DNA of 62,266 bases, filler included, from Actinomycetota bacterium (GTDB lineage Bacteria; Actinomycetota; CADDZG01; JAHWKV01; JAOPZY01): assembly GCA_025963875.1 (NCBI GenBank). It is 8 parts of 8 records of this genome, joined end to end, with 100 filler letters (N's around TTAATTAATTAA, not from the genome) between each part and the next. Parts side by side here need not be neighbours in the genome. Positions count along the whole stretch, not along the records: positions 7,409 to 35,384 come from JAOPZY010000133.1; 7 more parts are not named here. One strand, written 5' to 3'. The notes under the pieces were generated by a model. That model was not told where the DNA came from. It worked only from the letters and a program-made list of their open reading frames with translations, and ran no database searches. The translations under genes were made by a program, and so were the position numbers. Shown in pieces: positions 7,309 through 59,106 of the stretch. Each line of letters starts with the position of its first letter. Within the stretch, counting starts at the first letter, position 1.

Positions 7309-7408
7309 NNNNNNNNNNNNNNNNNNNNNNNNNNNNNNNNNNNNNNNNNNNNTTAATTAATTAANNNNNNNNNNNNNNNNNNNNNNNNNNNNNNNNNNNN
7401 NNNNNNNN
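7309..7408. other. Artificial contig linker
   Basis: N44-TTAATTAATTAA-N44. Confidence 0.98.
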
Positions 7409-7447: not shown

Positions 7448-9967
7448 ATGGACGACAACAGCGGCAGATCTTCCGGGACCACTGGGCCGTTGACGAACGG
7501 CCGGCGGGACGGCGGGCCGCCCGCGGCCGACGACCGTTACAAGTGGATCGCCCTCTCCAACACCACGTTGGGGATCTTCATGGCCACGCTCGACTCCTCG
7601 ATTGTCATCATCTCGCTCCCGGCGATCTTCCGGGGCATCAAGCTGAATCCGCTGGTCCCCGCCAACATCGGCTACCTGTTGTGGATGCTGATGGGCTACC
7701 TCGTCGTCACGGCCGTCCTCGTGGTGACGCTGGGCCGCATCGGCGACATCTTCGGCCGGGTCAAGATGTACAACCTGGGTTTTGCGATCTTCACGGTTGC
7801 GTCGGCTGCGCTGTCGCTGACACCCTGGCACGGGCCGGCAGGTGCGATGTGGCTGATCGTCGGCCGGGTGATCCAGGGAATCGGCGGCGCCCTGCTGATG
7901 GCGAACTCGACAGCCATCCTCACCGACGCCTTCCCCGTGCAGGAGCGGGGCATGGCCATGGGGATCAACATGATCGCGGCCATTCTCGGCTCCTTCATCG
8001 GCCTGGTGGTCGGGGGCCTCCTCGCGGATATCCAGTGGCGTGCGGTGTTCTGGATCAACATCCCCTTCGGAGTCTTCGGGACAATCTGGGCGTACCGACG
8101 CCTCCGGGACATGGGCCAGCGGACCCCCTCGAGCATCGACTGGTGGGGCAACCTGACCTTCGGTGTGGGCCTGGTGGCGGTGCTGATCGGCATGACCTAC
8201 GGCCTGCTGCCGTACGGCGGCCACAACATGGGCTGGACGAGCCCCATGGTCCTGTCGCTCATCATCGGGGGCCTGGTGATGCTCGTCGTGTTCGCATGGG
8301 TGGAACGGCATGTCGCCAACCCGATGTTCGAGCTGGGTCTCTTCAAGATCCGGGCGTTCACGGCCGGGAACATCGCGAGCCTCCTGTCGTCGATCGGACG
8401 GGGGGGCCTGATGTTCATGGTGGTCATCTGGCTCCAGGGCATCTGGCTGCCGCTGCACGGCTACAGTTTTGAACGGACGCCCCTGTGGGCCGGGATCTAC
8501 ATGCTGCCCACCACTGCGGGCTTCCTCGTTGCAGGACCGATCTCGGGCTGGCTCTCGGACCGCTACGGCGCCCGGCCGTTCGCCACCGGCGGCATGATCG
8601 TTGCAGCGGTGACCTTCGCGCTCCTCATGGGGCTGCCCGCCAACTTCTCCTACCCCGCCTTCGGGCTTCTCCTGTTCCTGAACGGCATCGGCTTCGGCCT
8701 CTTCGCCGCCCCGAACACCACCGGGATCATGAACTCCGTGCCTGCCCGCCAGCGCGGCGCGGCCTCCGGGATGCGGGCGACCTTCCAGAACAGCGGCATG
8801 CTGGTGTCCATCGGGCTGTTCTTCTCGCTCATGATCGCCGGGCTGGCCTCGGCCCTCCCGCGCAGCATGAGCGCCGGCCTCATCGGGCAGGGAGTGCCCG
8901 CCGCGGTGGCCAACCAGGTCTCGCACCTCCCCCCCGTCGGGAGTCTGTTCGCTGCGTTTCTCGGCTACAACCCGATGAGGAACCTGCTCGGGCCGGTCCT
9001 GAACACCCTCCCTGCGGCAAGGGCCAGCTACATCACGGGCACGACCTTCTTCCCGCAGCTCATCTCGGAGCCGTTCATGCACGGACTGCGGATCGTCTTC
9101 AGCGCGGCAGTCGTGATGTCGCTGGTCGCGGCGGCTGCCTCGTGGCTACGGGGAGAGAAGTACGTCCATGCCGAAGAGGAAACGGCTGCCGAGGCCCCGG
9201 GCGTTGCGGCCCTGGTTGCCGCAGACGGCGTCGTGGTCGCACCGGAGCAAACGAGGGAACCCGCGCTGGTTGAGGCTCCCCACAACCGAACGCGGCCGGA
9301 GCGCGAGGTGCGCATCGATGCCCTGGAGGCGCCGGGGGACCTCAGGGGCAAACTGGGGGAGGCGCTGCTGGCCTTCTCTGCTGCCCAACCGGCGCTCGCC
9401 GCCGTGCGGTCTGCGCTTGCTTCCGGGCGCCCGCCTCGTCCCGACGATCTCGCCGTCTTTGACAGGGCTGCCTCCACGCTGGCCGACATCGCTCGCCCGC
9501 TCGGCATCGACCCGGCACGGGCGACCCTGGGCGAGGTCGAAGCCCGGCTCGCCGCCTTGGAGGAGTCTCTCGGCGTCCGCCACTCCCTGCGTCGCCTCGC
9601 CGCCGCAAGCGGTCCGGCGGTCGCGGACGCTGGTCTGGGCGGCCTCTCTGCGGAGGCGGACCGTCTCGCCGAGGCGGCATCGTGGTCCGCGGAGGACGAA
9701 AGCCGGGCGTCCGTCCTCGTCGAGCTCGTGGAGCTGTCCGACGTCGCCACCAACGGCGGCGATGACGAGCGGATCCTCAGCCTCGATGCCGAGCTTCGCA
9801 CTGCGCTCGGGCCGGGCGCCGCCTCCGTCGTCCTGGCTGCCGCCCGCGGCCGCCTTGTCCTCCCGCCCGACCCACTCGTGAACTCTCCCGGACCGGGCCC
9901 CAACGGGCCGCGCAACGAGAGCTCCCACCCGGGCGAGCGGCCGCGGTCACATCTCCGCGCCGAGTAG
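7448..9967 (+). CDS. MFS transporter (DHA2/EmrB-like) with a ~270-aa C-terminal soluble extension
   Basis: LDSSIVIISLPAI, GRIGDIFGR motif A, GWLSDRYGAR; the extension is homologous to the N-terminus of the ABC ATPase at 10897. Confidence 0.92.
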   Translation: MDDNSGRSSGTTGPLTNGRRDGGPPAADDRYKWIALSNTTLGIFMATLDSSIVIISLPAIFRGIKLNPLVPANIGYLLWMLMGYLVVTAVLVVTLGRIGDIFGRVKMYNLGFAIFTVASAALSLTPWHGPAGAMWLIVGRVIQGIGGALLMANSTAILTDAFPVQERGMAMGINMIAAILGSFIGLVVGGLLADIQWRAVFWINIPFGVFGTIWAYRRLRDMGQRTPSSIDWWGNLTFGVGLVAVLIGMTYGLLPYGGHNMGWTSPMVLSLIIGGLVMLVVFAWVERHVANPMFELGLFKIRAFTAGNIASLLSSIGRGGLMFMVVIWLQGIWLPLHGYSFERTPLWAGIYMLPTTAGFLVAGPISGWLSDRYGARPFATGGMIVAAVTFALLMGLPANFSYPAFGLLLFLNGIGFGLFAAPNTTGIMNSVPARQRGAASGMRATFQNSGMLVSIGLFFSLMIAGLASALPRSMSAGLIGQGVPAAVANQVSHLPPVGSLFAAFLGYNPMRNLLGPVLNTLPAARASYITGTTFFPQLISEPFMHGLRIVFSAAVVMSLVAAAASWLRGEKYVHAEEETAAEAPGVAALVAADGVVVAPEQTREPALVEAPHNRTRPEREVRIDALEAPGDLRGKLGEALLAFSAAQPALAAVRSALASGRPPRPDDLAVFDRAASTLADIARPLGIDPARATLGEVEARLAALEESLGVRHSLRRLAAASGPAVADAGLGGLSAEADRLAEAASWSAEDESRASVLVELVELSDVATNGGDDERILSLDAELRTALGPGAASVVLAAARGRLVLPPDPLVNSPGPGPNGPRNESSHPGERPRSHLRAE

Positions 9968-9977
9968 GGTCGGGTCT

Positions 9978-10889
9978 ATGAATGCATCTGCGCGACGGGA
10001 CCGAGCCCGGCACGGCATGGGGGGTGACACCCTCGCCCGAGTGGTCGTGGCGTGCCTGGTGGTCCTGATCCTGGTTGGTCTCGTCGTCGCTGTGGTGCTT
10101 GTCGTACGGGACCGGAAAACCCAGCTCGCCGGACCCGTCGGCCAGAGTTCCGTGACGCAGGCCGTGACGCCTGCAGGGTCGCCGACTACCGTGACGCCTA
10201 CTGCCGCGACGAGTGTGTCTCCGAGCCCGGGCACGACGCCGGCTCCGGCGACCGATCTCGACGCAGTCGCCGCCGCCGTCGATCCGGGGGTGGCGGACCT
10301 GACCATCAAACGCGCCGACGGTTCGGTGTCCGCAGGGACGGGTATCGTCCTGACTCCGAACGGCGAGGTCCTGACCAACGACCACGTGATCGAGGGGGCC
10401 CTCACCATCACGGCCACGGTCGGAGGCGCCGGCGGGCTCCGCACCTTCACGGGGACGGTCCTGGGCGACGACGACGACCACGACATCGCCCTCATCCAGC
10501 TCCAGGGTGCCTCCGGCCTCCACGTGCCGGTGCTCGGGACCACCGCCACCGTCTCGCCAGGTGAGCAGGTGGTCGCCCTGGGTCATGCCGTCGAGGCTGG
10601 AGGCGGGCCGGCCACGATCCCGGGCATTGTGCTCGCCCTCGACCAGACGATCCCGGCGGTGGACCGAGACAGCCCGGTGAAGACGCTCACGGGCGTGATC
10701 GGGATCGTCGCCCTGGACCAGCCTTCGGACATGGGCGGACCCGTCGTCAACGCCGCGGGGCAGGTTATCGGCGTGAATGTTGCTGCGGCAGTGATACAGG
10801 GGCCGGCCTCGGTGCCGGTCGCCTATGCGATCCCGATCAACTCGGCGCTGCAGTCGGCCGAGCAGATCCGGGAAGGGAAGACACGATAG
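9978..10889 (+). CDS. Membrane-anchored trypsin-like (HtrA/S1C) protein, no PDZ, catalytic Ser absent
   Basis: N-terminal TM, Pro/Thr linker, GTGIVLTPNGEVLTNDHV, HDIALI; PSDMGGP replaces PGDSGGP. Confidence 0.85.
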   Translation: MNASARRDRARHGMGGDTLARVVVACLVVLILVGLVVAVVLVVRDRKTQLAGPVGQSSVTQAVTPAGSPTTVTPTAATSVSPSPGTTPAPATDLDAVAAAVDPGVADLTIKRADGSVSAGTGIVLTPNGEVLTNDHVIEGALTITATVGGAGGLRTFTGTVLGDDDDHDIALIQLQGASGLHVPVLGTTATVSPGEQVVALGHAVEAGGGPATIPGIVLALDQTIPAVDRDSPVKTLTGVIGIVALDQPSDMGGPVVNAAGQVIGVNVAAAVIQGPASVPVAYAIPINSALQSAEQIREGKTR

Positions 10890-10896
10890 GAGGCGG

Positions 10897-12561
10897 ATGC
10901 TCACGCAACCAGATGGCGCCGGCGAAGAGGCGGGCGACAAGGTAGCCGAAAAAGTAAAGGAGGGCCTGCAGGCGGTCTCCGTCGCCCAGGCGGCCCTCCC
11001 CAGCCTCCAGGCCGCCCTGGCCGCCGGCCGCGCACCCAGCGCCGACGATCTCGCCAAGCTGACGAACGTCGCTCCCTCTCTCTCCGAGGCTGCCGGTGTC
11101 CTCGGCCTTGATCCCGGACGAGCAACCATCGACGACCTCAAGGCGGAGGTGGCCGCTCGCGAGAGCTCCGTTCGCCTTCGGCCCGTTCTCCAGCGCCTCG
11201 CCCATGCCACCGGCCCGCCGGCAGCCGCACCCGGCCTGGCCACCCTGGCCGACGAGGCCGTCAGCCTCGCCGGGAAGGCCGCCTGGTCGTCGACCGACGA
11301 GGAGAGGGCATTGACGCTCGCCCACCTCGTCGACCTGGCCGACATGGCGGTTGGTCATCCTGACGACGACCAGCACATCCTCTCCCTGGATGCAGACCTC
11401 CGTCGCGCGCTCGGCCCCCCCGCTGCTCCTGTGGTGCTGGCTGCGGTCCGGGGACTGCTCGTTCTTCCCCCCACCGCCGAGCCAGCGTCGAATGTGGTCA
11501 GCATGGCTCAGGGCCCCGCAGTGTCCCCGCGGCCTGTGCCGAGCGCAACAGAGCGGGAAAAACCCCTACTCAAGCCGGTGGATCGTGAGAACCCGGTGGC
11601 GGCCGTTCCAGCCAGCCCCGAGGTGATCCGCACCTTCGACCTGACGAAGAAGTATCCGGGCATGGACGTCCCAGCCGTCGACCGGCTGAACCTGACGGTC
11701 TGCGCAGGCGAGATCTTCGGTCTGCTGGGACCGAACGGGGCCGGCAAGACCACGACGGCCGGCATGTTGACGACCCGGGTGATCCCCACTTCGGGGAAGG
11801 CCATTGTCGGCGGGATCGACGTCGTCGCCCATCCCGCCCTCGCGAAGCAGGCCCTCGGCGTGGTCACCCAGCAGAACACCCTCGACCGGTCGCTGAACGT
11901 GTGGGAGAACCTCTACTACCACGGGCTCTATTTCGGGATGTCCCATCGAGCCTCACGGGCAGCGGCGGACAGTCTCCTCGCCAAGTTCCACCTTGCGAAA
12001 TGGGCTAAATCTCCGGTCTTCGCGCTCTCCGGCGGGATGGCGCAGCGGCTCATGGTCGCCCGGGCAATCCTGCACCGTCCCCGGATCCTCTTCATGGATG
12101 AGCCGACGGCCGGTCTCGACCCCCAGAGTCGACTCGCCCTCTGGGACATCTTGTCCGAGCTCCATGCCGAGGGCCAGACGATCCTGCTCACGACGCACTA
12201 CATGGAGGAAGCGGACCAGCTCTGCGACCGGGTGGCGATCATGGATCACGGCAAGGTGCTCGCGCTCGATACCCCGGCGGGCCTCAAGTCCTCGCTGGGC
12301 GCTGAAACCATTGTCACCGTCAGCGCCGAGGGGGACCTCGACGCCCTCGCCGGCATTCTCCGCCGGGACGTCGAGGGCGTGACCCAGACCCAGCGAATGG
12401 ACTCGACTGTCCTGCTGCACGTGAGGGGAGCGTCCGGCGTGCTGCCGCAGGTGGTGACATCGGCCGAGCGGGGCGGCTTCGCCGTGAGTGACCTGTCCGT
12501 CGCCGAACCGACCCTCGAGACCGTGTTCATTCACCTCACCGGGAAGGAGCTGCGCGACTGA
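10897..12561 (+). CDS. ABC-2 type (DrrA/NodI-like) ATPase with N-terminal extension
   Basis: AGGAGG SD; Walker A GPNGAGKT, signature LSGGM, Walker B FMDEP, LTTHYMEEA, PTLETVFIHLTG tail. Confidence 0.92.
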   Translation: MLTQPDGAGEEAGDKVAEKVKEGLQAVSVAQAALPSLQAALAAGRAPSADDLAKLTNVAPSLSEAAGVLGLDPGRATIDDLKAEVAARESSVRLRPVLQRLAHATGPPAAAPGLATLADEAVSLAGKAAWSSTDEERALTLAHLVDLADMAVGHPDDDQHILSLDADLRRALGPPAAPVVLAAVRGLLVLPPTAEPASNVVSMAQGPAVSPRPVPSATEREKPLLKPVDRENPVAAVPASPEVIRTFDLTKKYPGMDVPAVDRLNLTVCAGEIFGLLGPNGAGKTTTAGMLTTRVIPTSGKAIVGGIDVVAHPALAKQALGVVTQQNTLDRSLNVWENLYYHGLYFGMSHRASRAAADSLLAKFHLAKWAKSPVFALSGGMAQRLMVARAILHRPRILFMDEPTAGLDPQSRLALWDILSELHAEGQTILLTTHYMEEADQLCDRVAIMDHGKVLALDTPAGLKSSLGAETIVTVSAEGDLDALAGILRRDVEGVTQTQRMDSTVLLHVRGASGVLPQVVTSAERGGFAVSDLSVAEPTLETVFIHLTGKELRD

Positions 12562-12982
12562 CCACTACCGGCAGCCGGTCGCCCACGAAGTAGGCCCATC
12601 CCTTCCGGTGGTCGGCGGCATGGTGCGCCGGCAGGTCGGAGTGGCGCAGGACCAGCAGCGTCCCACCGCTCTCGGGCGTCAGCGTGACCTCGACGCGGGT
12701 CGACCCTGGTGGGAGCGGCCCTGCCGGGGCGTTGCCTTCCCACCCGAAGGTGAACACAAGCCGCCGGGGTGGGTCGAGCTCGACGAAGGTACCGCGCATC
12801 ACGGGGCCGTGCCCCACGACGACGCGAAACAGGCCACCCGGCTCGGCCACCACCTCGGCGTCGGTCGCCCACCACTCGACGAGACGCTGCGGCTCGGTCC
12901 AGAACTTCCAGACGGTTTCCGGCGGCGCGGCGATGCGCACGGTCTGCTCGATGGTGGTCGTCTCTCCGGTGGTCTCGCTCAA
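12536..12982 (-). CDS. SRPBCC/AHSA1-family protein
   Basis: IAAPPETVWKFWT, PPRRLVFTFGWEG, GTLLVLRH, HRKGW. Confidence 0.9.
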   Translation of the reverse strand: MSETTGETTTIEQTVRIAAPPETVWKFWTEPQRLVEWWATDAEVVAEPGGLFRVVVGHGPVMRGTFVELDPPRRLVFTFGWEGNAPAGPLPPGSTRVEVTLTPESGGTLLVLRHSDLPAHHAADHRKGWAYFVGDRLPVVVSRAAPSR

Positions 12983-12989
12983 GGGACAC

Positions 12990-13349
12990 TCATTCTCCGT
13001 CGTGGCCGGATTCCCGGCGGGCCGCCTGCTCGGCGGCCTGCTTGAGCCTGGCCAGCCGGTCGGCCCACATCTCGTCGATGAACCGCCACACCTCGGCCAA
13101 CCCCTCCGTCCGCGCTCGGTAGAGGCGGTGGTTGCCGTTGGGGCGGATGCTCACCAATCCGGCTTCGTGCAGGACCCGCAGGTGCTGCGACACCGCCGGC
13201 CGGCTCATCCCGGGGAATGCCGCCGCCAGGTCCCCGGCGGCCCGCTCGCCGTCGCGCACCAGACGGAGAAGCCCACGCCGGGTCCCATCGGCGAGGGCGT
13301 GCGCCACCGCGTCGATGCGCTCGTCGCCTTGTGCGGCAGGGGAAAGCAT
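12990..13349 (-). CDS. ArsR/SmtB family regulator
   Basis: ALADGTRRGLL, SRPAVSQHLRVLHEAGLV; typical ArsR-SRPBCC pair. Confidence 0.92.
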   Translation of the reverse strand: MLSPAAQGDERIDAVAHALADGTRRGLLRLVRDGERAAGDLAAAFPGMSRPAVSQHLRVLHEAGLVSIRPNGNHRLYRARTEGLAEVWRFIDEMWADRLARLKQAAEQAARRESGHDGE

Positions 13350-13367
13350 GTAAGAATTCTCTTACAT
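13348..13367. promoter_or_regulatory. Palindromic operator, probably ArsR autoregulatory
   Basis: ATGTAAGA-attc-TCTTACAT overlapping the arsR start codon. Confidence 0.65.
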
Positions 13368-13407
13368 AGATGGCGCCGGCGCAAGCCGGGCCACGAAGGG
13401 AGGACCC

Positions 13408-14103
13408 ATGGACCTGATGGCCGAACCCACCGTCGCCAGCCGCGAGGAATGGCTCAGCGCCCGGTTCGAACTGCTCCAGGCGGAGAAGGAGCTGACCCGC
13501 CGTCGCGACGAGCTGAGCCGCCAGCGGCGGGCACTGCCATGGGTCCGCATCGACAAGCCCTACGAGTTCGACACCACCGACGGGCCCCGCTCGCTCCCCG
13601 ACCTGTTCGACGGGCGCAGCCAGCTGCTCGTCTACCACTTCATGTTCGGTCCCGACTGGGACGAGGGCTGTCCGAGCTGCTCGTTCTGGGCCGACAACTT
13701 CGACGGCATCGGTGTGCACCTCGCCCACCGCGACGTGACCTTCCTCGCCGTGTCCCGGGCACCGCTCGACCGGCTCATGGCCTACCGCAGCCGCATGGGC
13801 TGGACGTTCCCGTGGGTGTCGGCGCTGGGGAGCGACTTCAACATGGACTTCGGCGTCTCGCAAGCCTCGACCTACAACTACGTCCCGGCCGCAAGCCCGG
13901 AAGAGGAGCTACCCGGTCTGAGCGCATTCGCCCAACGCGACGGCGAGGTGTTCCACACGTACTCCTGCTACTCCCGTGGGCTCGACGCCTTCAACGGCGC
14001 ATACCAGCTGCTCGATCTCACCCCGAAAGGACGCGACGAGGGTGGCCTCCCGCACTCGATGGCATGGCTGCACCGCCACGACGCCTACCCCGACCTCAGC
14101 TAA
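13408..14103 (+). CDS. DUF899 thioredoxin-like protein
   Basis: RRALPWV, DLFDGRSQLLVYHFMFGP, GCPSCS, LLDLTPKGRDE. Confidence 0.93.
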   Translation: MDLMAEPTVASREEWLSARFELLQAEKELTRRRDELSRQRRALPWVRIDKPYEFDTTDGPRSLPDLFDGRSQLLVYHFMFGPDWDEGCPSCSFWADNFDGIGVHLAHRDVTFLAVSRAPLDRLMAYRSRMGWTFPWVSALGSDFNMDFGVSQASTYNYVPAASPEEELPGLSAFAQRDGEVFHTYSCYSRGLDAFNGAYQLLDLTPKGRDEGGLPHSMAWLHRHDAYPDLS

Positions 14104-21666: not shown

Positions 21667-21955
21667 CCCGGCCACCATAACCGACTCCAGTCGCACGTCG
21701 AGAAAACCACTGAGGGGCGGCAATCTGGGCGATCCGATCGAGCGCCGCTCTGCTTCCGCCCAGCGGCCAGCCGGCGCTCCGGCCACGGCGAGACCCATTC
21801 CCCTCTCGGGGGATGGCGACCCAGGCCAAAAGGAGGACCCCACTGCTACTTATGGGCTATCTCCTTTTTCCTCCAAACGGTCGACATTCATCTAGCAAGG
21901 AAGGGTGGGGCAGGGGACGGCAACAAGGGGGCAGTGACATTCACAGACAAGGCGC

Positions 21956-23782
21956 GTGAGAATTATGTTCCGTAAATCTCAAGTTGTTGAAGAGGACCGC
22001 AGACAGACGGACGACGCTCGCTTGCCAGACGCAGGCTCGCCCGAGAGCGGCTCCGAGGCTTCCGGCACCGTCATTGACCTCCGCGAGATGGATCGCTGGC
22101 CGGCCCTGCCGGGTTCACCGAAGCTGGGCGAGATGCTCGTGAGAAAGCAGTTCGTCACCCACGCCCAGCTGTCCGAGGCCCTCTTGCAGCAATCGGCATC
22201 GGGGAAGCGACTCGGCACGCTGCTCGTCGAGCTCGGGATCCTGGACGAGCGCAATCTCGCGGCAACCGTTGCCGATCAACTCGGGCTGCCGCTGGCCGAC
22301 CTGAGGCGGCAGGCGCCGGAGCCCGAGGCCCTCGCGCTGGTGCCCGAGGCCCTCGCCCGCAGCCGGCGTGCCCTCCCGCTGCGGGTCACCGCCGCGGGGA
22401 TCGAGATCGCCGTGGCAGATCCGGGCCCGAAGATCCGGGAGGAACTTTCCGCGGCGGCCGGGCGCGACGTGATCCTTCTCGTGGCCCCGGTCTCGGATAT
22501 CGAGCGGGCCATCGACAGCTCCTACCGGGCCCTGACCGGCATCGAGTCCGAGGTCGAGGCCTTCCAGCTCGTCGCCAGCTCGCGCCACGTCGAGGCCGTC
22601 ATCCAGCAGAGCGTCACGGCCGACGCCCCCGTGGTGAAGGTCGTCAACCTCATCATCACGCAGGGGCTGCGGGACCGGGCCTCCGACATCCACATCGAGC
22701 CGCAGGAAGACCGGCTGCGGATCCGGTACCGCATCGACGGGGCCCTCCACGACGTCATCGCCCTGCCGTCATCGATGGCGCCGGCGGTGATCAGCCGGCT
22801 GAAGATCCTGGCCGAGATGAACATCGTCGAGCGCCAGCGCTCCCAGGATGGTCAGATCTCCATGACCATCGACGGGCGCCAGGTCGACATCCGGGTAGCG
22901 ACGACGGCGACGATCTGGGGTGAGAAGGCGGTGCTGCGCCTCCTCGACAAGTCGAAGCGGCTCTACCGCCTGGACGATCTCGGGATGTCGCCCGAGGTGC
23001 ACAGCGCCTACTCCCGGCTCATTCGCATGCCCTTCGGGATGGTGATCTGCGCCGGCCCCACGGGGAGCGGCAAGACCACCACGCTCTACGCCACCCTCAA
23101 CGAGGTCAACGACTCCCAGCGCAACGTCATGACGATCGAGGACCCGGTCGAATACATCCTCCCGTCCATCAACCAGATCCAGATCCGGGAGCAGGCGGGG
23201 ATCTCGTTCGCCGGAGGGCTCAAGTCCATCCTCCGCCAGGACCCCGACGTCATCCTCGTCGGCGAGATCCGCGACGTCGAGACGGCCCGGATCGCCGTGC
23301 AGTCGGCGCTCACGGGGCACTTCGTCATGTCGTCGCTGCACGCCACGGACGCCGCGGCGGCCCTCCACCGGCTCCTCGACATGGGCATCGAGTCGTTCCT
23401 CGTCTCATCGTCGGTGGTCGGCGTGGTGGGTCAGCGCCTGCTGCGCCGGATCTGCCGGGCCTGCATGGTGGCCTACCAGCCGGGGCCCGACGAGCTCGCC
23501 TTTTACGGGGAGTCCGGGGGCACGTGGAAGGAGCAGTTCTGGCACGGCGAAGGGTGCAACCTCTGCTCGAACACGGGCTACCAGGAGCGCATCGGCGTGT
23601 ACGAACTGCTGGTTGTCACCGACGAGATCAAGAACCTCCTCGTCAAGAACGGCACCCACGAAGAACTCCGGGCGATGGCGACGAGCCAGGGGATGCACCC
23701 GCTGCGCGAGCAGGCAACGAGGCTCGTCACCCAGGACATCACGACCATCGCCGAAGTCATGCGCAACATCTACACCCTCTAA
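21956..23782 (+). CDS. pilB: Type IV pilus assembly ATPase (GspE/PilB) with MshEN-like N-domain
   Basis: ASDIHIEP, GPTGSGKT, TIEDPVE, LRQDPD, TGH, CxxC...CxxC; tandem (K/R)LG motifs at the N-terminus. Start may be ATG 21965. Confidence 0.93.
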   Translation: MRIMFRKSQVVEEDRRQTDDARLPDAGSPESGSEASGTVIDLREMDRWPALPGSPKLGEMLVRKQFVTHAQLSEALLQQSASGKRLGTLLVELGILDERNLAATVADQLGLPLADLRRQAPEPEALALVPEALARSRRALPLRVTAAGIEIAVADPGPKIREELSAAAGRDVILLVAPVSDIERAIDSSYRALTGIESEVEAFQLVASSRHVEAVIQQSVTADAPVVKVVNLIITQGLRDRASDIHIEPQEDRLRIRYRIDGALHDVIALPSSMAPAVISRLKILAEMNIVERQRSQDGQISMTIDGRQVDIRVATTATIWGEKAVLRLLDKSKRLYRLDDLGMSPEVHSAYSRLIRMPFGMVICAGPTGSGKTTTLYATLNEVNDSQRNVMTIEDPVEYILPSINQIQIREQAGISFAGGLKSILRQDPDVILVGEIRDVETARIAVQSALTGHFVMSSLHATDAAAALHRLLDMGIESFLVSSSVVGVVGQRLLRRICRACMVAYQPGPDELAFYGESGGTWKEQFWHGEGCNLCSNTGYQERIGVYELLVVTDEIKNLLVKNGTHEELRAMATSQGMHPLREQATRLVTQDITTIAEVMRNIYTL

Positions 23783-23838
23783 AACGAGGGAGACCTTCCG
23801 AAGGCTGGACCTTTTAGCGCTGTGCGAGCGAGGTAGAC

Positions 23839-25041
23839 ATGGACCGCAACGAGTTCAACGCCCGGGTGATCACCGATTATCGCGGGCTCCCCGCTGGCAC
23901 CTTCCCGATGCCCTCGGCTGAGAGCCCGGAGAGTTTGGTGGGTCCCGGCGGCGGCGAGAAGAAGAAAAAGAGCATCTGGCAATTCGAGGTCACCAAGAAG
24001 CGGGTGCCGCGCGCCGATCTCATGAACTTCTCGCGCCAGCTCGCGGCCTTCATCCGCGCGGGCATCCCGATCCTGGAGGCCATCGACACGTTCGCCCAGG
24101 AGGCGGGCAACCGGACGTTCAAGGAAGCGCTGGTCGATATCGGAGCTTCCCTCCGCCAGGGGGAGACCTTTTCGGCGGCGGTTGCGGCGCACGGGAAGAC
24201 CTTCCCGAGTTTCTACGTGGACATGCTGAGGGCGGCCGAGCTCACGGGGCGCCTTGACTCGGTGCTGGACCAGCTTTCCCGCTACATCGAGCGGGACCTG
24301 GAGGCCAGGCGGAAGATCCGCTCGGCCATGACGTACCCGGCGCTGATCGGCGTTATGTCGCTGGGGACGGTCGGGATCCTCTCTGTCTTTGTCCTGCCCC
24401 GGTTCAAGACCTTCTTCGCATCGTTCCATGCGAAGCTGCCGCTGGCCACTCGTATGGTGCTCGCTGCCGGCAACTTCGTCGGCACCTGGTGGTGGGCAAT
24501 CCTCATTGGCGTCGTCACTGCTGTCGTCGCGATCGTCGTGGCACTGAGGACCACCCCGGGTCGAGTCGCCCTGGACAAGGCTTTGCTCAAACTTCCGGTC
24601 GTGTCCGACGTGGTCCGCTTCGCAATCGTCGAACGGACCTGCCGGATCCTCGCCTCGATGGTGAAGGCTGGAGTTCCGCTCCCGGACGCCATGGTCGTCG
24701 TGGCGGAAAGCGCAGGGAACAAGGTCTACGAACGTGCCCTCGGCAAGGTCCGCGCAGCGATGCTTGAAGGTGAAGGAATCGCGACCCCCATCACCCGGAC
24801 GAATCTCTTCCCGGCTGCGGTGACCCAGATGGTCCGCGTCGGAGAGAACACCGGCACGCTGGACATCCAGCTCGAGACCGCTGCGGCGTTCTACGAGCAG
24901 GAGCTCGACTACAAGATCAAGAAACTCACCACCCTCTTTGAGCCGGCCATGATCATCTTCATGGGCCTCGTCGTGGGCTTTGTCGCCATCGCCCTGGTCT
25001 CCGCGATGTACGGCATCTTCCGGCAGGTGAACCTGCAGTGA
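23839..25041 (+). CDS. pilC: Type IV pilus platform protein (GspF/PilC)
   Basis: FSRQLA, SAMTYP, VGENTGTL, LFEPAMI. Confidence 0.93.
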   Translation: MDRNEFNARVITDYRGLPAGTFPMPSAESPESLVGPGGGEKKKKSIWQFEVTKKRVPRADLMNFSRQLAAFIRAGIPILEAIDTFAQEAGNRTFKEALVDIGASLRQGETFSAAVAAHGKTFPSFYVDMLRAAELTGRLDSVLDQLSRYIERDLEARRKIRSAMTYPALIGVMSLGTVGILSVFVLPRFKTFFASFHAKLPLATRMVLAAGNFVGTWWWAILIGVVTAVVAIVVALRTTPGRVALDKALLKLPVVSDVVRFAIVERTCRILASMVKAGVPLPDAMVVVAESAGNKVYERALGKVRAAMLEGEGIATPITRTNLFPAAVTQMVRVGENTGTLDIQLETAAAFYEQELDYKIKKLTTLFEPAMIIFMGLVVGFVAIALVSAMYGIFRQVNLQ

Positions 25042-25505
25042 CGGTCATCCTCCGGCGCCTCCGCTGCGATGCGGGCACGACCCTGATCGAGGCTCTCATG
25101 ACCATTGCCATCATGGCCGCTTGCTTCGCAGCGATTCTCGGGGGGGTATCGACCCAGATCCTGATGTCGGACCTCCACCGCAAGCAGGCTTCCGCCCAGA
25201 CGATCCTGCGGAGCTACGCCGATGCAATCGAAGCGTCCACGACCTGGCGCGGCTGTGCAGCCGTCACGAGCGACTACGCCCCAGGGCAGGTGTCCTACTC
25301 CGACTACGCCAGCGGGTACACGCCGTCCGCGACAGCCGTCAGGTACTGGGATGCTGCCGGCGCCACATTCGCGTCGACCTGCACGACCGACCCCGGCCTG
25401 CAGCTCGTCACGATCCAGGTCCGAACGGATCGTGCGACCGAGTCGATGGATGTCGTCAAACGGTGCCTTGGGGCACGGACTGCGGCAGGTGGGCCATGTC
25501 CCTGA
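25038..25505 (+). CDS. Minor pilin
   Basis: Class III signal DAG/TTLIE followed by a hydrophobic helix. Confidence 0.85.
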   Translation: MTVILRRLRCDAGTTLIEALMTIAIMAACFAAILGGVSTQILMSDLHRKQASAQTILRSYADAIEASTTWRGCAAVTSDYAPGQVSYSDYASGYTPSATAVRYWDAAGATFASTCTTDPGLQLVTIQVRTDRATESMDVVKRCLGARTAAGGPCP

Positions 25506-35384: not shown

Positions 35385-35484
35385 NNNNNNNNNNNNNNNN
35401 NNNNNNNNNNNNNNNNNNNNNNNNNNNNTTAATTAATTAANNNNNNNNNNNNNNNNNNNNNNNNNNNNNNNNNNNNNNNNNNNN
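35385..35484. other. Artificial contig linker
   Basis: N44-TTAATTAATTAA-N44. Confidence 0.98.
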
Positions 35485-40439: not shown

Positions 40440-40539
40440 NNNNNNNNNNNNNNNNNNNNNNNNNNNNNNNNNNNNNNNNNNNNTTAATTAATTAANNNNN
40501 NNNNNNNNNNNNNNNNNNNNNNNNNNNNNNNNNNNNNNN
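40440..40539. other. Artificial contig linker
   Basis: N44-TTAATTAATTAA-N44. Confidence 0.98.
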
Positions 40540-46685: not shown

Positions 46686-46785
46686 NNNNNNNNNNNNNNN
46701 NNNNNNNNNNNNNNNNNNNNNNNNNNNNNTTAATTAATTAANNNNNNNNNNNNNNNNNNNNNNNNNNNNNNNNNNNNNNNNNNNN
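46686..46785. other. Artificial contig linker
   Basis: N44-TTAATTAATTAA-N44. Confidence 0.98.
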
Positions 46786-51561: not shown

Positions 51562-51661
51562 NNNNNNNNNNNNNNNNNNNNNNNNNNNNNNNNNNNNNNN
51601 NNNNNTTAATTAATTAANNNNNNNNNNNNNNNNNNNNNNNNNNNNNNNNNNNNNNNNNNNN
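51562..51661. other. Artificial contig linker
   Basis: N44-TTAATTAATTAA-N44. Confidence 0.98.
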
Positions 51662-56068: not shown

Positions 56069-56168
56069 NNNNNNNNNNNNNNNNNNNNNNNNNNNNNNNN
56101 NNNNNNNNNNNNTTAATTAATTAANNNNNNNNNNNNNNNNNNNNNNNNNNNNNNNNNNNNNNNNNNNN
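56069..56168. other. Artificial contig linker
   Basis: N44-TTAATTAATTAA-N44. Confidence 0.98.
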
Positions 56169-59006: not shown

Positions 59007-59106
59007 NNNNNNNNNNNNNNNNNNNNNNNNNNNNNNNNNNNNNNNNNNNNTTAATTAATTAANNNNNNNNNNNNNNNNNNNNNNNNNNNNNNNNNNNNNN
59101 NNNNNN
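59007..59106. other. Artificial contig linker
   Basis: N44-TTAATTAATTAA-N44. Confidence 0.98.

Follow-up and report, generated by a model that had tools for sequence, protein, structure and literature searches.

Two classes of exporter are the nearest described counterparts of the pumps encoded by a three-gene locus found in a 62-kb stretch of draft genome sequence from an uncultured soil bacterium of the Actinomycetota (called the window below, meaning the whole stretch of DNA that was analysed). The first is made up of the DHA2 (EmrB/QacA) drug:H+ antiporters of the major facilitator superfamily (MFS), with 14 transmembrane segments, and the second of the DrrAB-type ATP-binding cassette (ABC) exporters of the ABC-2 kind, which pair a DrrA ATPase with a DrrB permease (TIGR01188 and PF01061). 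The locus encodes an MFS exporter, a trypsin-like protein and a DrrA-like ABC ATPase, and one and the same domain forms part of the MFS C-terminal tail and the head of the ATPase. The novelty lies in this accessory domain and in its occurrence on a protease and on more than one class of transporter; the pumps themselves are of known types. With a probability of roughly 55%, the domain is a lineage-specific cytoplasmic interaction tag on exporters, and the ATPase is that of a canonical ABC-2 pair whose permease was lost here by rearrangement. The locus invites the mistaken view of a hybrid pump without a permease, an ATP-driven or ATP-gated exporter formed when the shared domain attaches the ABC ATPase to the MFS protein, as had been proposed in the initial annotation.

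Other described systems bear on parts of the locus. The MsiK ATPase is common to several permeases. DasABC-MsiK is among the systems named in Streptomyces (PMC6167110). The likeness is that the ATPase gene of the present locus does not lie next to that of its permease, and its product may serve a permease encoded elsewhere; the differences are that MsiK serves sugar importers and is without a recruiting domain, whereas the relatives of the ATPase described here keep their permease adjacent and its tag is also found on an orphan permease. In the actinobacteria, the RND protein MmpL7 acts with DrrABC in the export of the lipid PDIM (phthiocerol dimycocerosate) (PMC11539658). Such joint action sets a precedent for combining a proton-driven and an ATP-driven exporter in one export route, and what suggests co-operation at the present locus is the shared tag. 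To our knowledge, there is no domain shared by MmpL7 and DrrABC. For the middle gene of the locus, the closest counterpart described is MamO of the magnetotactic bacteria, a trypsin-like pseudoprotease that has been repurposed (PMC4794232).

The shared domain and its distribution

The match between the two copies covers MFS residues 635-808 and ATPase residues 19-192, with 91 of 174 positions identical (52%, E 1e-45, one gap), and so bears out the initial observation that the end of the MFS protein and the start of the ATPase share a domain of about 174 residues. An AlphaFold2 model based on a 10-row alignment predicts an all-alpha structure of eight helices (predicted local distance difference test, pLDDT, 91; predicted template modelling score, pTM, 0.73). 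The domain has no match in Pfam or NCBIfam, and the model found nothing in the PDB at E <= 0.001 with Foldseek; the best hit of an exhaustive VIA-align comparison (Z 6.8 at a root-mean-square deviation of 17 A) is within the noise for helical proteins. When the domain profile was run against PDB sequences all E values were 0.011 or higher, the ESM Atlas returned nothing usable, and a literature search on MFS/ABC shared-domain fusions in Actinobacteria brought up an unrelated paper and no description of the domain. It is a real and conserved module that appears to be undescribed, and the absence of matches does not prove that its fold is new. Even on the most modest reading this is a new domain family with a confidently predicted fold and no known relative, and it merits a database entry.

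Conservation of the domain could be followed by comparison with the orthologous locus L001, which lies in G001, a metagenome-assembled genome placed in the Actinomycetota by GTDB. The ratio of non-synonymous to synonymous substitution rates (dN/dS) is 0.19 for the tail copy and 0.37 for the head copy, indicative of purifying selection, and the linkers, at about 0.42-0.43, are much freer. These linkers, through which the domain is joined to its partners, are disordered and measure 50-80 residues in the MFS protein and the ATPase of the window. The invariant positions of the domain are R77, R82, W112, S113, D131 and D146 in the numbering of the tail copy, with charged and aromatic residues among them. 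The tails of the window and L001 are 76% identical, compared with 52% for tail and head within the window; as the orthologous copies are more alike than the paralogs in one genome, the fusions predate the split of the two organisms.

A profile made from the two window copies was searched against 1.84 billion cluster representatives, 30 of which matched at E <= 0.001, many of them fragments. The head-plus-ABC architecture was seen in 12 clusters from NCBI, JGI and ENA. Longer proteins were examined by scoring the 8000 best word-sharing candidates with the profile, which gives counts that are not exhaustive, and at least 29 of them bear the domain: 21 MFS proteins, two ABC ATPases, one ABC-2 permease, one trypsin-like protein and four without a Pfam family. 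The possibility that the fusions are unique to this assembly, which the initial annotation had allowed for, is contradicted by the 12 head-plus-ABC clusters, the 21 MFS fusions and the independent contigs described below.

The order of the fused parts is not fixed. DHA2 MFS pumps and DrrA-like ATPases each carry the domain at the N- or the C-terminus, depending on the protein, and among the ATPases one (P0018) is built as domain-linker-ABC ATPase and another (P0017, together with the fragment P0016) as ABC ATPase-linker-domain. The trypsin-like protein (P0063, 526 aa) consists of the domain, a Pro-rich linker, a transmembrane helix and a protease domain in which the catalytic Ser is kept; it is a relative of the protease of the operon, so the third gene class of the operon is also tagged in some relatives. 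Four giant STAND-like proteins of 1909-1962 aa (P0034, P0038, P0039 and P0040) contain the domain in divergent form near residue 220-400, and in three of the four Pfam places a P-loop region (AAA_22/AAA_16) near residue 1260-1450. The fragments P0026 and P0042 group with these proteins of about 1900 aa, for which NCBIfam gave no match, and which might be cytoplasmic partners of the tag. The domain is thus not specific to the MFS-ATPase pair, being present on an ABC-2 permease, two other MFS types, an ABC ATPase that has it at the C-terminus, a protease and STAND-like proteins, and this speaks against the hybrid pump of the initial annotation.

Five copies of the domain are encoded by G001. Two are the MFS tail and ATPase head of L001, and the third is the N-terminus of a 682-aa DrrB-like ABC-2 permease (L087 9366-11414, contig C295). 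The gene for this tagged permease is an orphan flanked by no ATPase gene; beside it are an SDR gene, a MarR gene and a divergent non-ribosomal peptide synthetase (NRPS) cluster. Simple duplication was dropped as its origin, since this permease and that of the operon are not close paralogs. The NRPS cluster beside it comprises C-A-T, a thioesterase, an aminotransferase, a 2OG-Fe dioxygenase, a haem-oxygenase-like protein and an MFS_3 protein. The fourth copy is the N-terminus of a second DHA2 MFS protein (L088 7733-10303, contig C1), which scores above the TIGR00711 cutoff. Adjoining this tagged MFS gene, at L088 10407-14219 on the same contig, is a gene for a 1270-aa SARP-like regulator (Trans_reg_C, BTAD, AAA_16 and TPR). 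The fifth copy is the N-terminus of a membrane protein at a contig end (L002); an MMPL-like identity for the fusion partner in L002 and P0013 found no support in Pfam, NCBIfam or PDB searches. The domain was found in one of the 26 genomes of the order to which G001 belongs and in one of the 112 of its class, in both cases G001 itself.

The topology of MFS proteins, of DrrB and of single-pass proteins with the N-terminus inside is known from their families, and on this basis the domain is predicted to sit at the end expected to be cytoplasmic in the fusions with an identified partner. It is because the domain occupies the cytoplasmic ends of many export-related proteins in a narrow lineage that it is read here as an interaction tag.

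A permease missing through rearrangement

Both pumps appear to be ordinary members or near-members of the DHA2 MFS and DrrAB-type ABC-2 families. The MFS protein is well above the threshold of Pfam MFS_1 (142.9 bits, threshold 33.4). Its likeness to the DHA2 pumps lies in this match and in its nearest NCBIfam models, among which TIGR00711 (DHA2/EmrB-QacA) is the best-matching subfamily, though the score of 175.2 bits is below the cutoff of 230.2, and the other leading matches are the TcmA, QacA and LfrA models. Unlike the DHA2 pumps, it has a cytoplasmic tail of about 280 residues that carries the new domain. The ATPase passes Pfam ABC_tran (102.9 bits, threshold 25), falls just under the DrrA model TIGR01188 (309 bits, cutoff 312.45) and has a C-terminal end that is sub-threshold for DrrA1-3_C (24.2 bits, threshold 27.4). 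The score of its core and this DrrA1-3_C-like end make it resemble the DrrAB-type ATPases, as does the permease that adjoins it in L001 and the relatives described below, although not in this organism. What sets it apart is an N-terminal extension of about 240 residues, composed of the new domain and a linker, which is absent from 80 of 80 relatives lacking the head domain (called head-less here) among the matches listed. The translation contains GPNGAGKTT, LSGGMAQR, ILFMDEPT and TTHYMEE, which we take to be the Walker A, signature, Walker B and H-loop motifs. Since the core has a dN/dS of 0.09 (0.11 for the MFS core) and the ATP-binding motifs are intact, the ATPase looks functional.

No ABC-2 permease gene follows that of the ATPase, where the next genes, recognized by Pfam matches and third-position G+C (GC3), encode an SRPBCC/AHSA1 protein, an ArsR protein and a DUF899 protein. 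A tblastn search with the L001 permease gave no match anywhere in the window. The stretch 11900-13300 is present in 20 public runs from 15 studies, and the junction was checked in Logan contigs of four runs from four studies other than the probable source of the sequence. Single contigs of three studies bridge the ATPase/SRPBCC junction (X10 11598-12736, X2 11865-13048 and X5 12204-13605), and with three independent studies doing so, assembly chimerism is ruled out as the cause of the missing permease. Further contigs of X10 run from the MFS core through the tail into the protease gene (8576-10229) and from the protease gene to the ATPase head (10406-11455); parts of the stretch are without contig cover in X5 and X7. 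As Logan contigs span both the MFS tail and the ATPase head, the fusions are real. The absence of a permease noted in the initial annotation has therefore been upheld, and the confirmation of the assembly that it called for is supplied by independent contigs for the fusions and the junction alike.

The explanation came from L001, the only orthologous locus with the same fusions that was recovered in a search with a two-row alignment of the domain. The gene order in L001 is DUF899, a Crp-type regulator, the MFS protein with its tail domain, a Trypsin_2 protein, the head-bearing ATPase and a permease of 301 aa, which is an ABC-2 protein (PF01061) and whose start codon overlaps the ATPase stop. 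In blastn comparisons the similarity between the window and L001 runs through the MFS, protease and ATPase genes to the stop at 12561 and restarts at 12573. The sequence from there on (window 12573-14093), a block of SRPBCC, ArsR and DUF899 genes, is equivalent to L001 4811-6308 and is located upstream of the MFS gene in L001. The permease gene of L001 begins at the position equivalent to the breakpoint in the window. Synteny is thus broken within 11 nt of the ATPase stop, and the permease has therefore been lost from the locus or moved by rearrangement; that it is missing from the window locus through rearrangement is shown by this comparison. A second rearrangement is present on the same contig, where a block with genes for a type II/IV secretion ATPase (T2SSE) and T2SSF (window 21826-25225) is inverted and displaced relative to L001 1239-4666.

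Relatives of the ATPase were sought by scanning metagenomes with the whole protein, which brought up at least 80 loci, all head-less. Among the matches listed, these loci match the ATPase core alone (residues about 175-554, 63-82% identity), and a homolog of the L001 permease (59-79% identity) lies directly downstream in all 66 of those with at least 600 nt of downstream sequence. Of the 14 shorter loci in the same set, the start of the permease is visible in 12 and two have no room for it; the contigs of P0001 and P0002, the closest relatives at 96% identity, are not in the set. The domain is likewise absent from these listed loci (0 of 80, covering 809 kb), in a search in which positive controls were found. 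The ATPase core thus comes from a family of two-gene ABC-2 exporters of great regularity, in which the head is a late addition in a small clade. In two loci (L047 163-4384 and L055 1-3314) an ortholog of the MFS protein (59-64% identity) is encoded immediately ahead of the genes for the ATPase and permease, from which no protease gene separates it, and the MFS/ABC-2 neighbourhood may predate the domain. These results go against the notion that the MFS protein is powered or gated by the ABC ATPase, as the permease gene overlaps the ATPase stop in L001 and adjoins the ATPase gene in 66 of 66 head-less relatives among the matches listed. An ABC-2 permease at orthologous loci, which the initial annotation had itself named as telling against its proposal, is present at the single ortholog recovered.

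Possible roles of the domain

The question of whether the two copies bind each other was addressed by one controlled complex prediction of tail and head, each with its own alignment, in three runs with three controls. The runs scored 0.73, 0.54 and 0.48 (median 0.54) and the best control 0.00, with a contact agreement of at least 100% and a partner pLDDT of at least 82. The tool, which graded this as "weak support", had been calibrated on 80 solved complexes, of which 58 reached the mark, and on 110 mismatched pairs, of which 2 did so; 7 of the solved complexes and both of these mismatches passed at 0.60 or under. The modelling gives no more than a mild nudge in favour of self-association. Thus, the complex model of the MFS tail with the ATPase head that had been suggested as a check was passed, but weakly so at a median of 0.54.

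If the domain is an interaction tag, its binding target would be the domain itself or some cytoplasmic partner in common, and exporters that are otherwise independent in their action would thereby be co-localised or co-regulated. The ATPase would not drive the MFS protein and would instead belong with an ABC-2 permease, as it does in its relatives. Because the ATPase looks functional, the permease that it serves is presumably encoded elsewhere and may be a domain-tagged orphan like the ABC-2 permease found in G001. The docking module of the initial annotation survives in part, in that the domain is real, not unique to this assembly, predicted to be cytoplasmic and credited with a weak tail-head pass; the hybrid of an ATPase seated on an MFS protein does not. 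Such a tag, if it serves in assembly or common control, would amount to a new way to wire together unrelated exporters (MFS, ABC-2 and possibly others) and an extracytoplasmic protease-like protein, and it would explain how an ATPase parted from its permease gene still finds a partner.

Several observations weigh against this reading. The conservation of the operon rests on two loci, those of the window and L001, and the head copy is less constrained than the pump cores (0.37 compared with about 0.1). The ortholog of the MFS gene adjoins head-less ATPase genes in 3 of 43 loci and in L055, which makes a functional link between the pumps possible. By its calibration, a weak pass of the complex tool is more often wrong than right unless the pairing is already likely. 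The giant STAND-like proteins were not found in G001 and so are not an obligatory partner there.

The main rival is that the domain gates each carrier singly, through a small ligand or a modification and without domain-domain contacts. CBS, USP and STAS domains are fused to diverse transporters and have regulatory roles, and this offers an analogy. The promiscuous fusion of the domain, at either terminus and through flexible linkers, to unrelated classes of transporter would suit such a sensor, as would the invariant charged and aromatic positions listed above and the compact helical bundle that is predicted. Yet the domain is also carried by a single-pass protease and by STAND-like proteins of about 1900 aa, which are not gated carriers, and the weak tail-head pass points the other way. 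Such gating is considered unlikely while being the alternative to be taken most seriously.

The MsiK and MmpL7-DrrABC precedents make a bolder version of the interaction tag thinkable, in which the domain acts as a homotypic "velcro". Orphan ABC-2 permeases that bear the tag would recruit, in trans, a single ATPase that bears it too, and the proton-driven pumps of the MFS types, the ABC-2 system and the membrane-anchored (pseudo)protease would be gathered in an export hub at the cytoplasmic face. This is a speculative and rather improbable proposal; were it true, it would mean modular, domain-addressed sharing of an energising subunit and the co-localising of exporters of different energy classes.

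It is also conceivable that the ATPase is a stranded remnant, functionless since the loss of its permease, and that the domain copies are passengers of lineage-specific shuffling with no common role. The break in synteny at the ATPase stop and the nearly neutral evolution of the neighbouring pseudoprotease would fit such decay. The ATPase core, however, has kept its low dN/dS, its frame and its motifs, and several studies have contigs that show the same arrangement free of frameshifts. Purifying selection also acts on the domain copies (0.19 and 0.37), and these are more alike across orthologs (tail to tail) than within the genome (tail to head), which leaves the remnant a very doubtful explanation.

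The hybrid pump is the least probable of the readings and hardly credible: the lack of a permease gene after the ATPase at a junction that is real, the gaps of 7-10 nt between the genes, the weak pass of the tail-head prediction (0.54 compared with 0.00 for the control) and the strong purifying selection on the ATPase core all fit it, but an ABC-2 permease is translationally coupled to the ATPase in the ortholog that has these fusions, a permease is adjacent in each of the 66 head-less relatives among the matches listed, the domain is also found on proteins unlinked to ATP use or to this MFS protein, and the upstream context of the MFS gene is cut by a contig edge.

The pseudoprotease and the layout of the window

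The protein encoded by the middle gene has a trypsin-like fold by its score against Pfam Trypsin_2 (69.3 bits, threshold 27.6) and matches HtrA and DegQ in the PDB at E 1e-17 to 1e-16. In the nucleophile column it reads psdMGGP where Thermotoga HtrA (1l1j) has pgnSGGP, a change of Ser to Met, and the His (NDHV) and Asp (HDIAL) of the triad are retained. Hydropathy indicates one strong N-terminal transmembrane helix (aa 22-40); no PDZ family was found in Pfam at E <= 0.01, and the protein ends right after the protease domain. The initial description of a membrane-anchored trypsin fold without its nucleophile was thus accurate, with Met in place of Ser and the anchor at the N-terminus.

An alignment of the window and L001 proteins with 45 database clusters (47 rows in all) showed that the Ser is missing in 20, where M, T, A or N takes its place, with a gap in one row and the Ser kept in 26. 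None of the 20 proteins without Ser, which are about 200-305 aa long, has a PDZ domain, whereas motifs like GDSGGP are kept throughout the canonical HtrA proteins that have one, and for this reason the Ser-less proteins are a maintained clade and not a one-off mutation. A Ser-less protease occurs in one of the 112 genomes of the class of G001, the same restriction as that of the domain. The dN/dS of the pseudoprotease against its ortholog is 0.59-0.72, close to neutral, and any part that it may play in binding or scaffolding at the outer face is conjecture. It shares with MamO an HtrA-like fold that lacks catalytic competence and an association with membrane transport, and the MamO model and PDB 5hm9 are among its matches. 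Unlike MamO, it has no fused TauE-like transporter, and the nucleophile column varies between M, T, A and N across its clade; at 74.1 bits against an NF040961 cutoff of 800 it is not a member of that family.

The window consists of eight draft contigs placed end to end and joined by seven spacers of the form N44-TTAATTAATTAA-N44, across which gene neighbourhoods are not readable (Table 1). The MFS gene starts 39 nt past one of these joins, and because the contig edge is so near, its upstream neighbours cannot be read. The G+C content of the window is about 0.58-0.72 and the majority of long open reading frames (ORFs) are spurious, and genes were picked by GC3 frame analysis together with family matches.

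Table 1. Positions of the locus, its neighbours and the contig joins in the window
Feature	Position	Strand	Remarks
MFS exporter, DHA2-like	7448-9967	+	839 aa; core ~aa 30-580, Ala/Glu-rich linker, C-terminal new domain
Tail copy of new domain	9350..9871	+	MFS aa 635-808; ~174 aa, all-alpha (predicted)
HtrA-like pseudoprotease, membrane-anchored, PDZ-less	9978-10889	+	303 aa
DrrA-like ABC-2 ATPase	10897-12561	+	554 aa; N-terminal new domain, Pro-rich linker, core ~11608-12561
Head copy of new domain	10951..11472	+	ABC aa 19-192
Synteny breakpoint relative to L001	12562..12572		blastn
SRPBCC/AHSA1 gene	12536-12982	-	GC3 and Pfam; convergent with ATPase, outside the system
ArsR/SmtB-type regulator	12990-13349	-	Outside the system
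DUF899 gene	13408-14103	+	Pfam; outside the system
Contig with the three-gene locus	7409-35384		Preceded by spacer 7309..7408
Contig-join spacers	7309-7408, 35385-35484, 40440-40539, 46686-46785, 51562-51661, 56069-56168, 59007-59106		

The GC3 analysis agrees with the reading frames of all three locus genes. Together with the ORF coordinates, it supports the three co-oriented genes recorded at the outset, which are separated by 10 nt (MFS/pseudoprotease) and 7 nt (pseudoprotease/ATPase). A Shine-Dalgarno sequence, AGGAGG, is located 5 nt ahead of the ATPase ATG. The genes have the appearance of being co-transcribed, as an operon of otherwise ordinary envelope proteins. Downstream, the ORF of the SRPBCC/AHSA1 gene and the 3' end of the ATPase gene overlap by 26 nt (12536-12561), and the C-terminal codons of the former are unlike those of its ortholog, which fits a breakpoint at the 3' end of the SRPBCC/AHSA1 gene.

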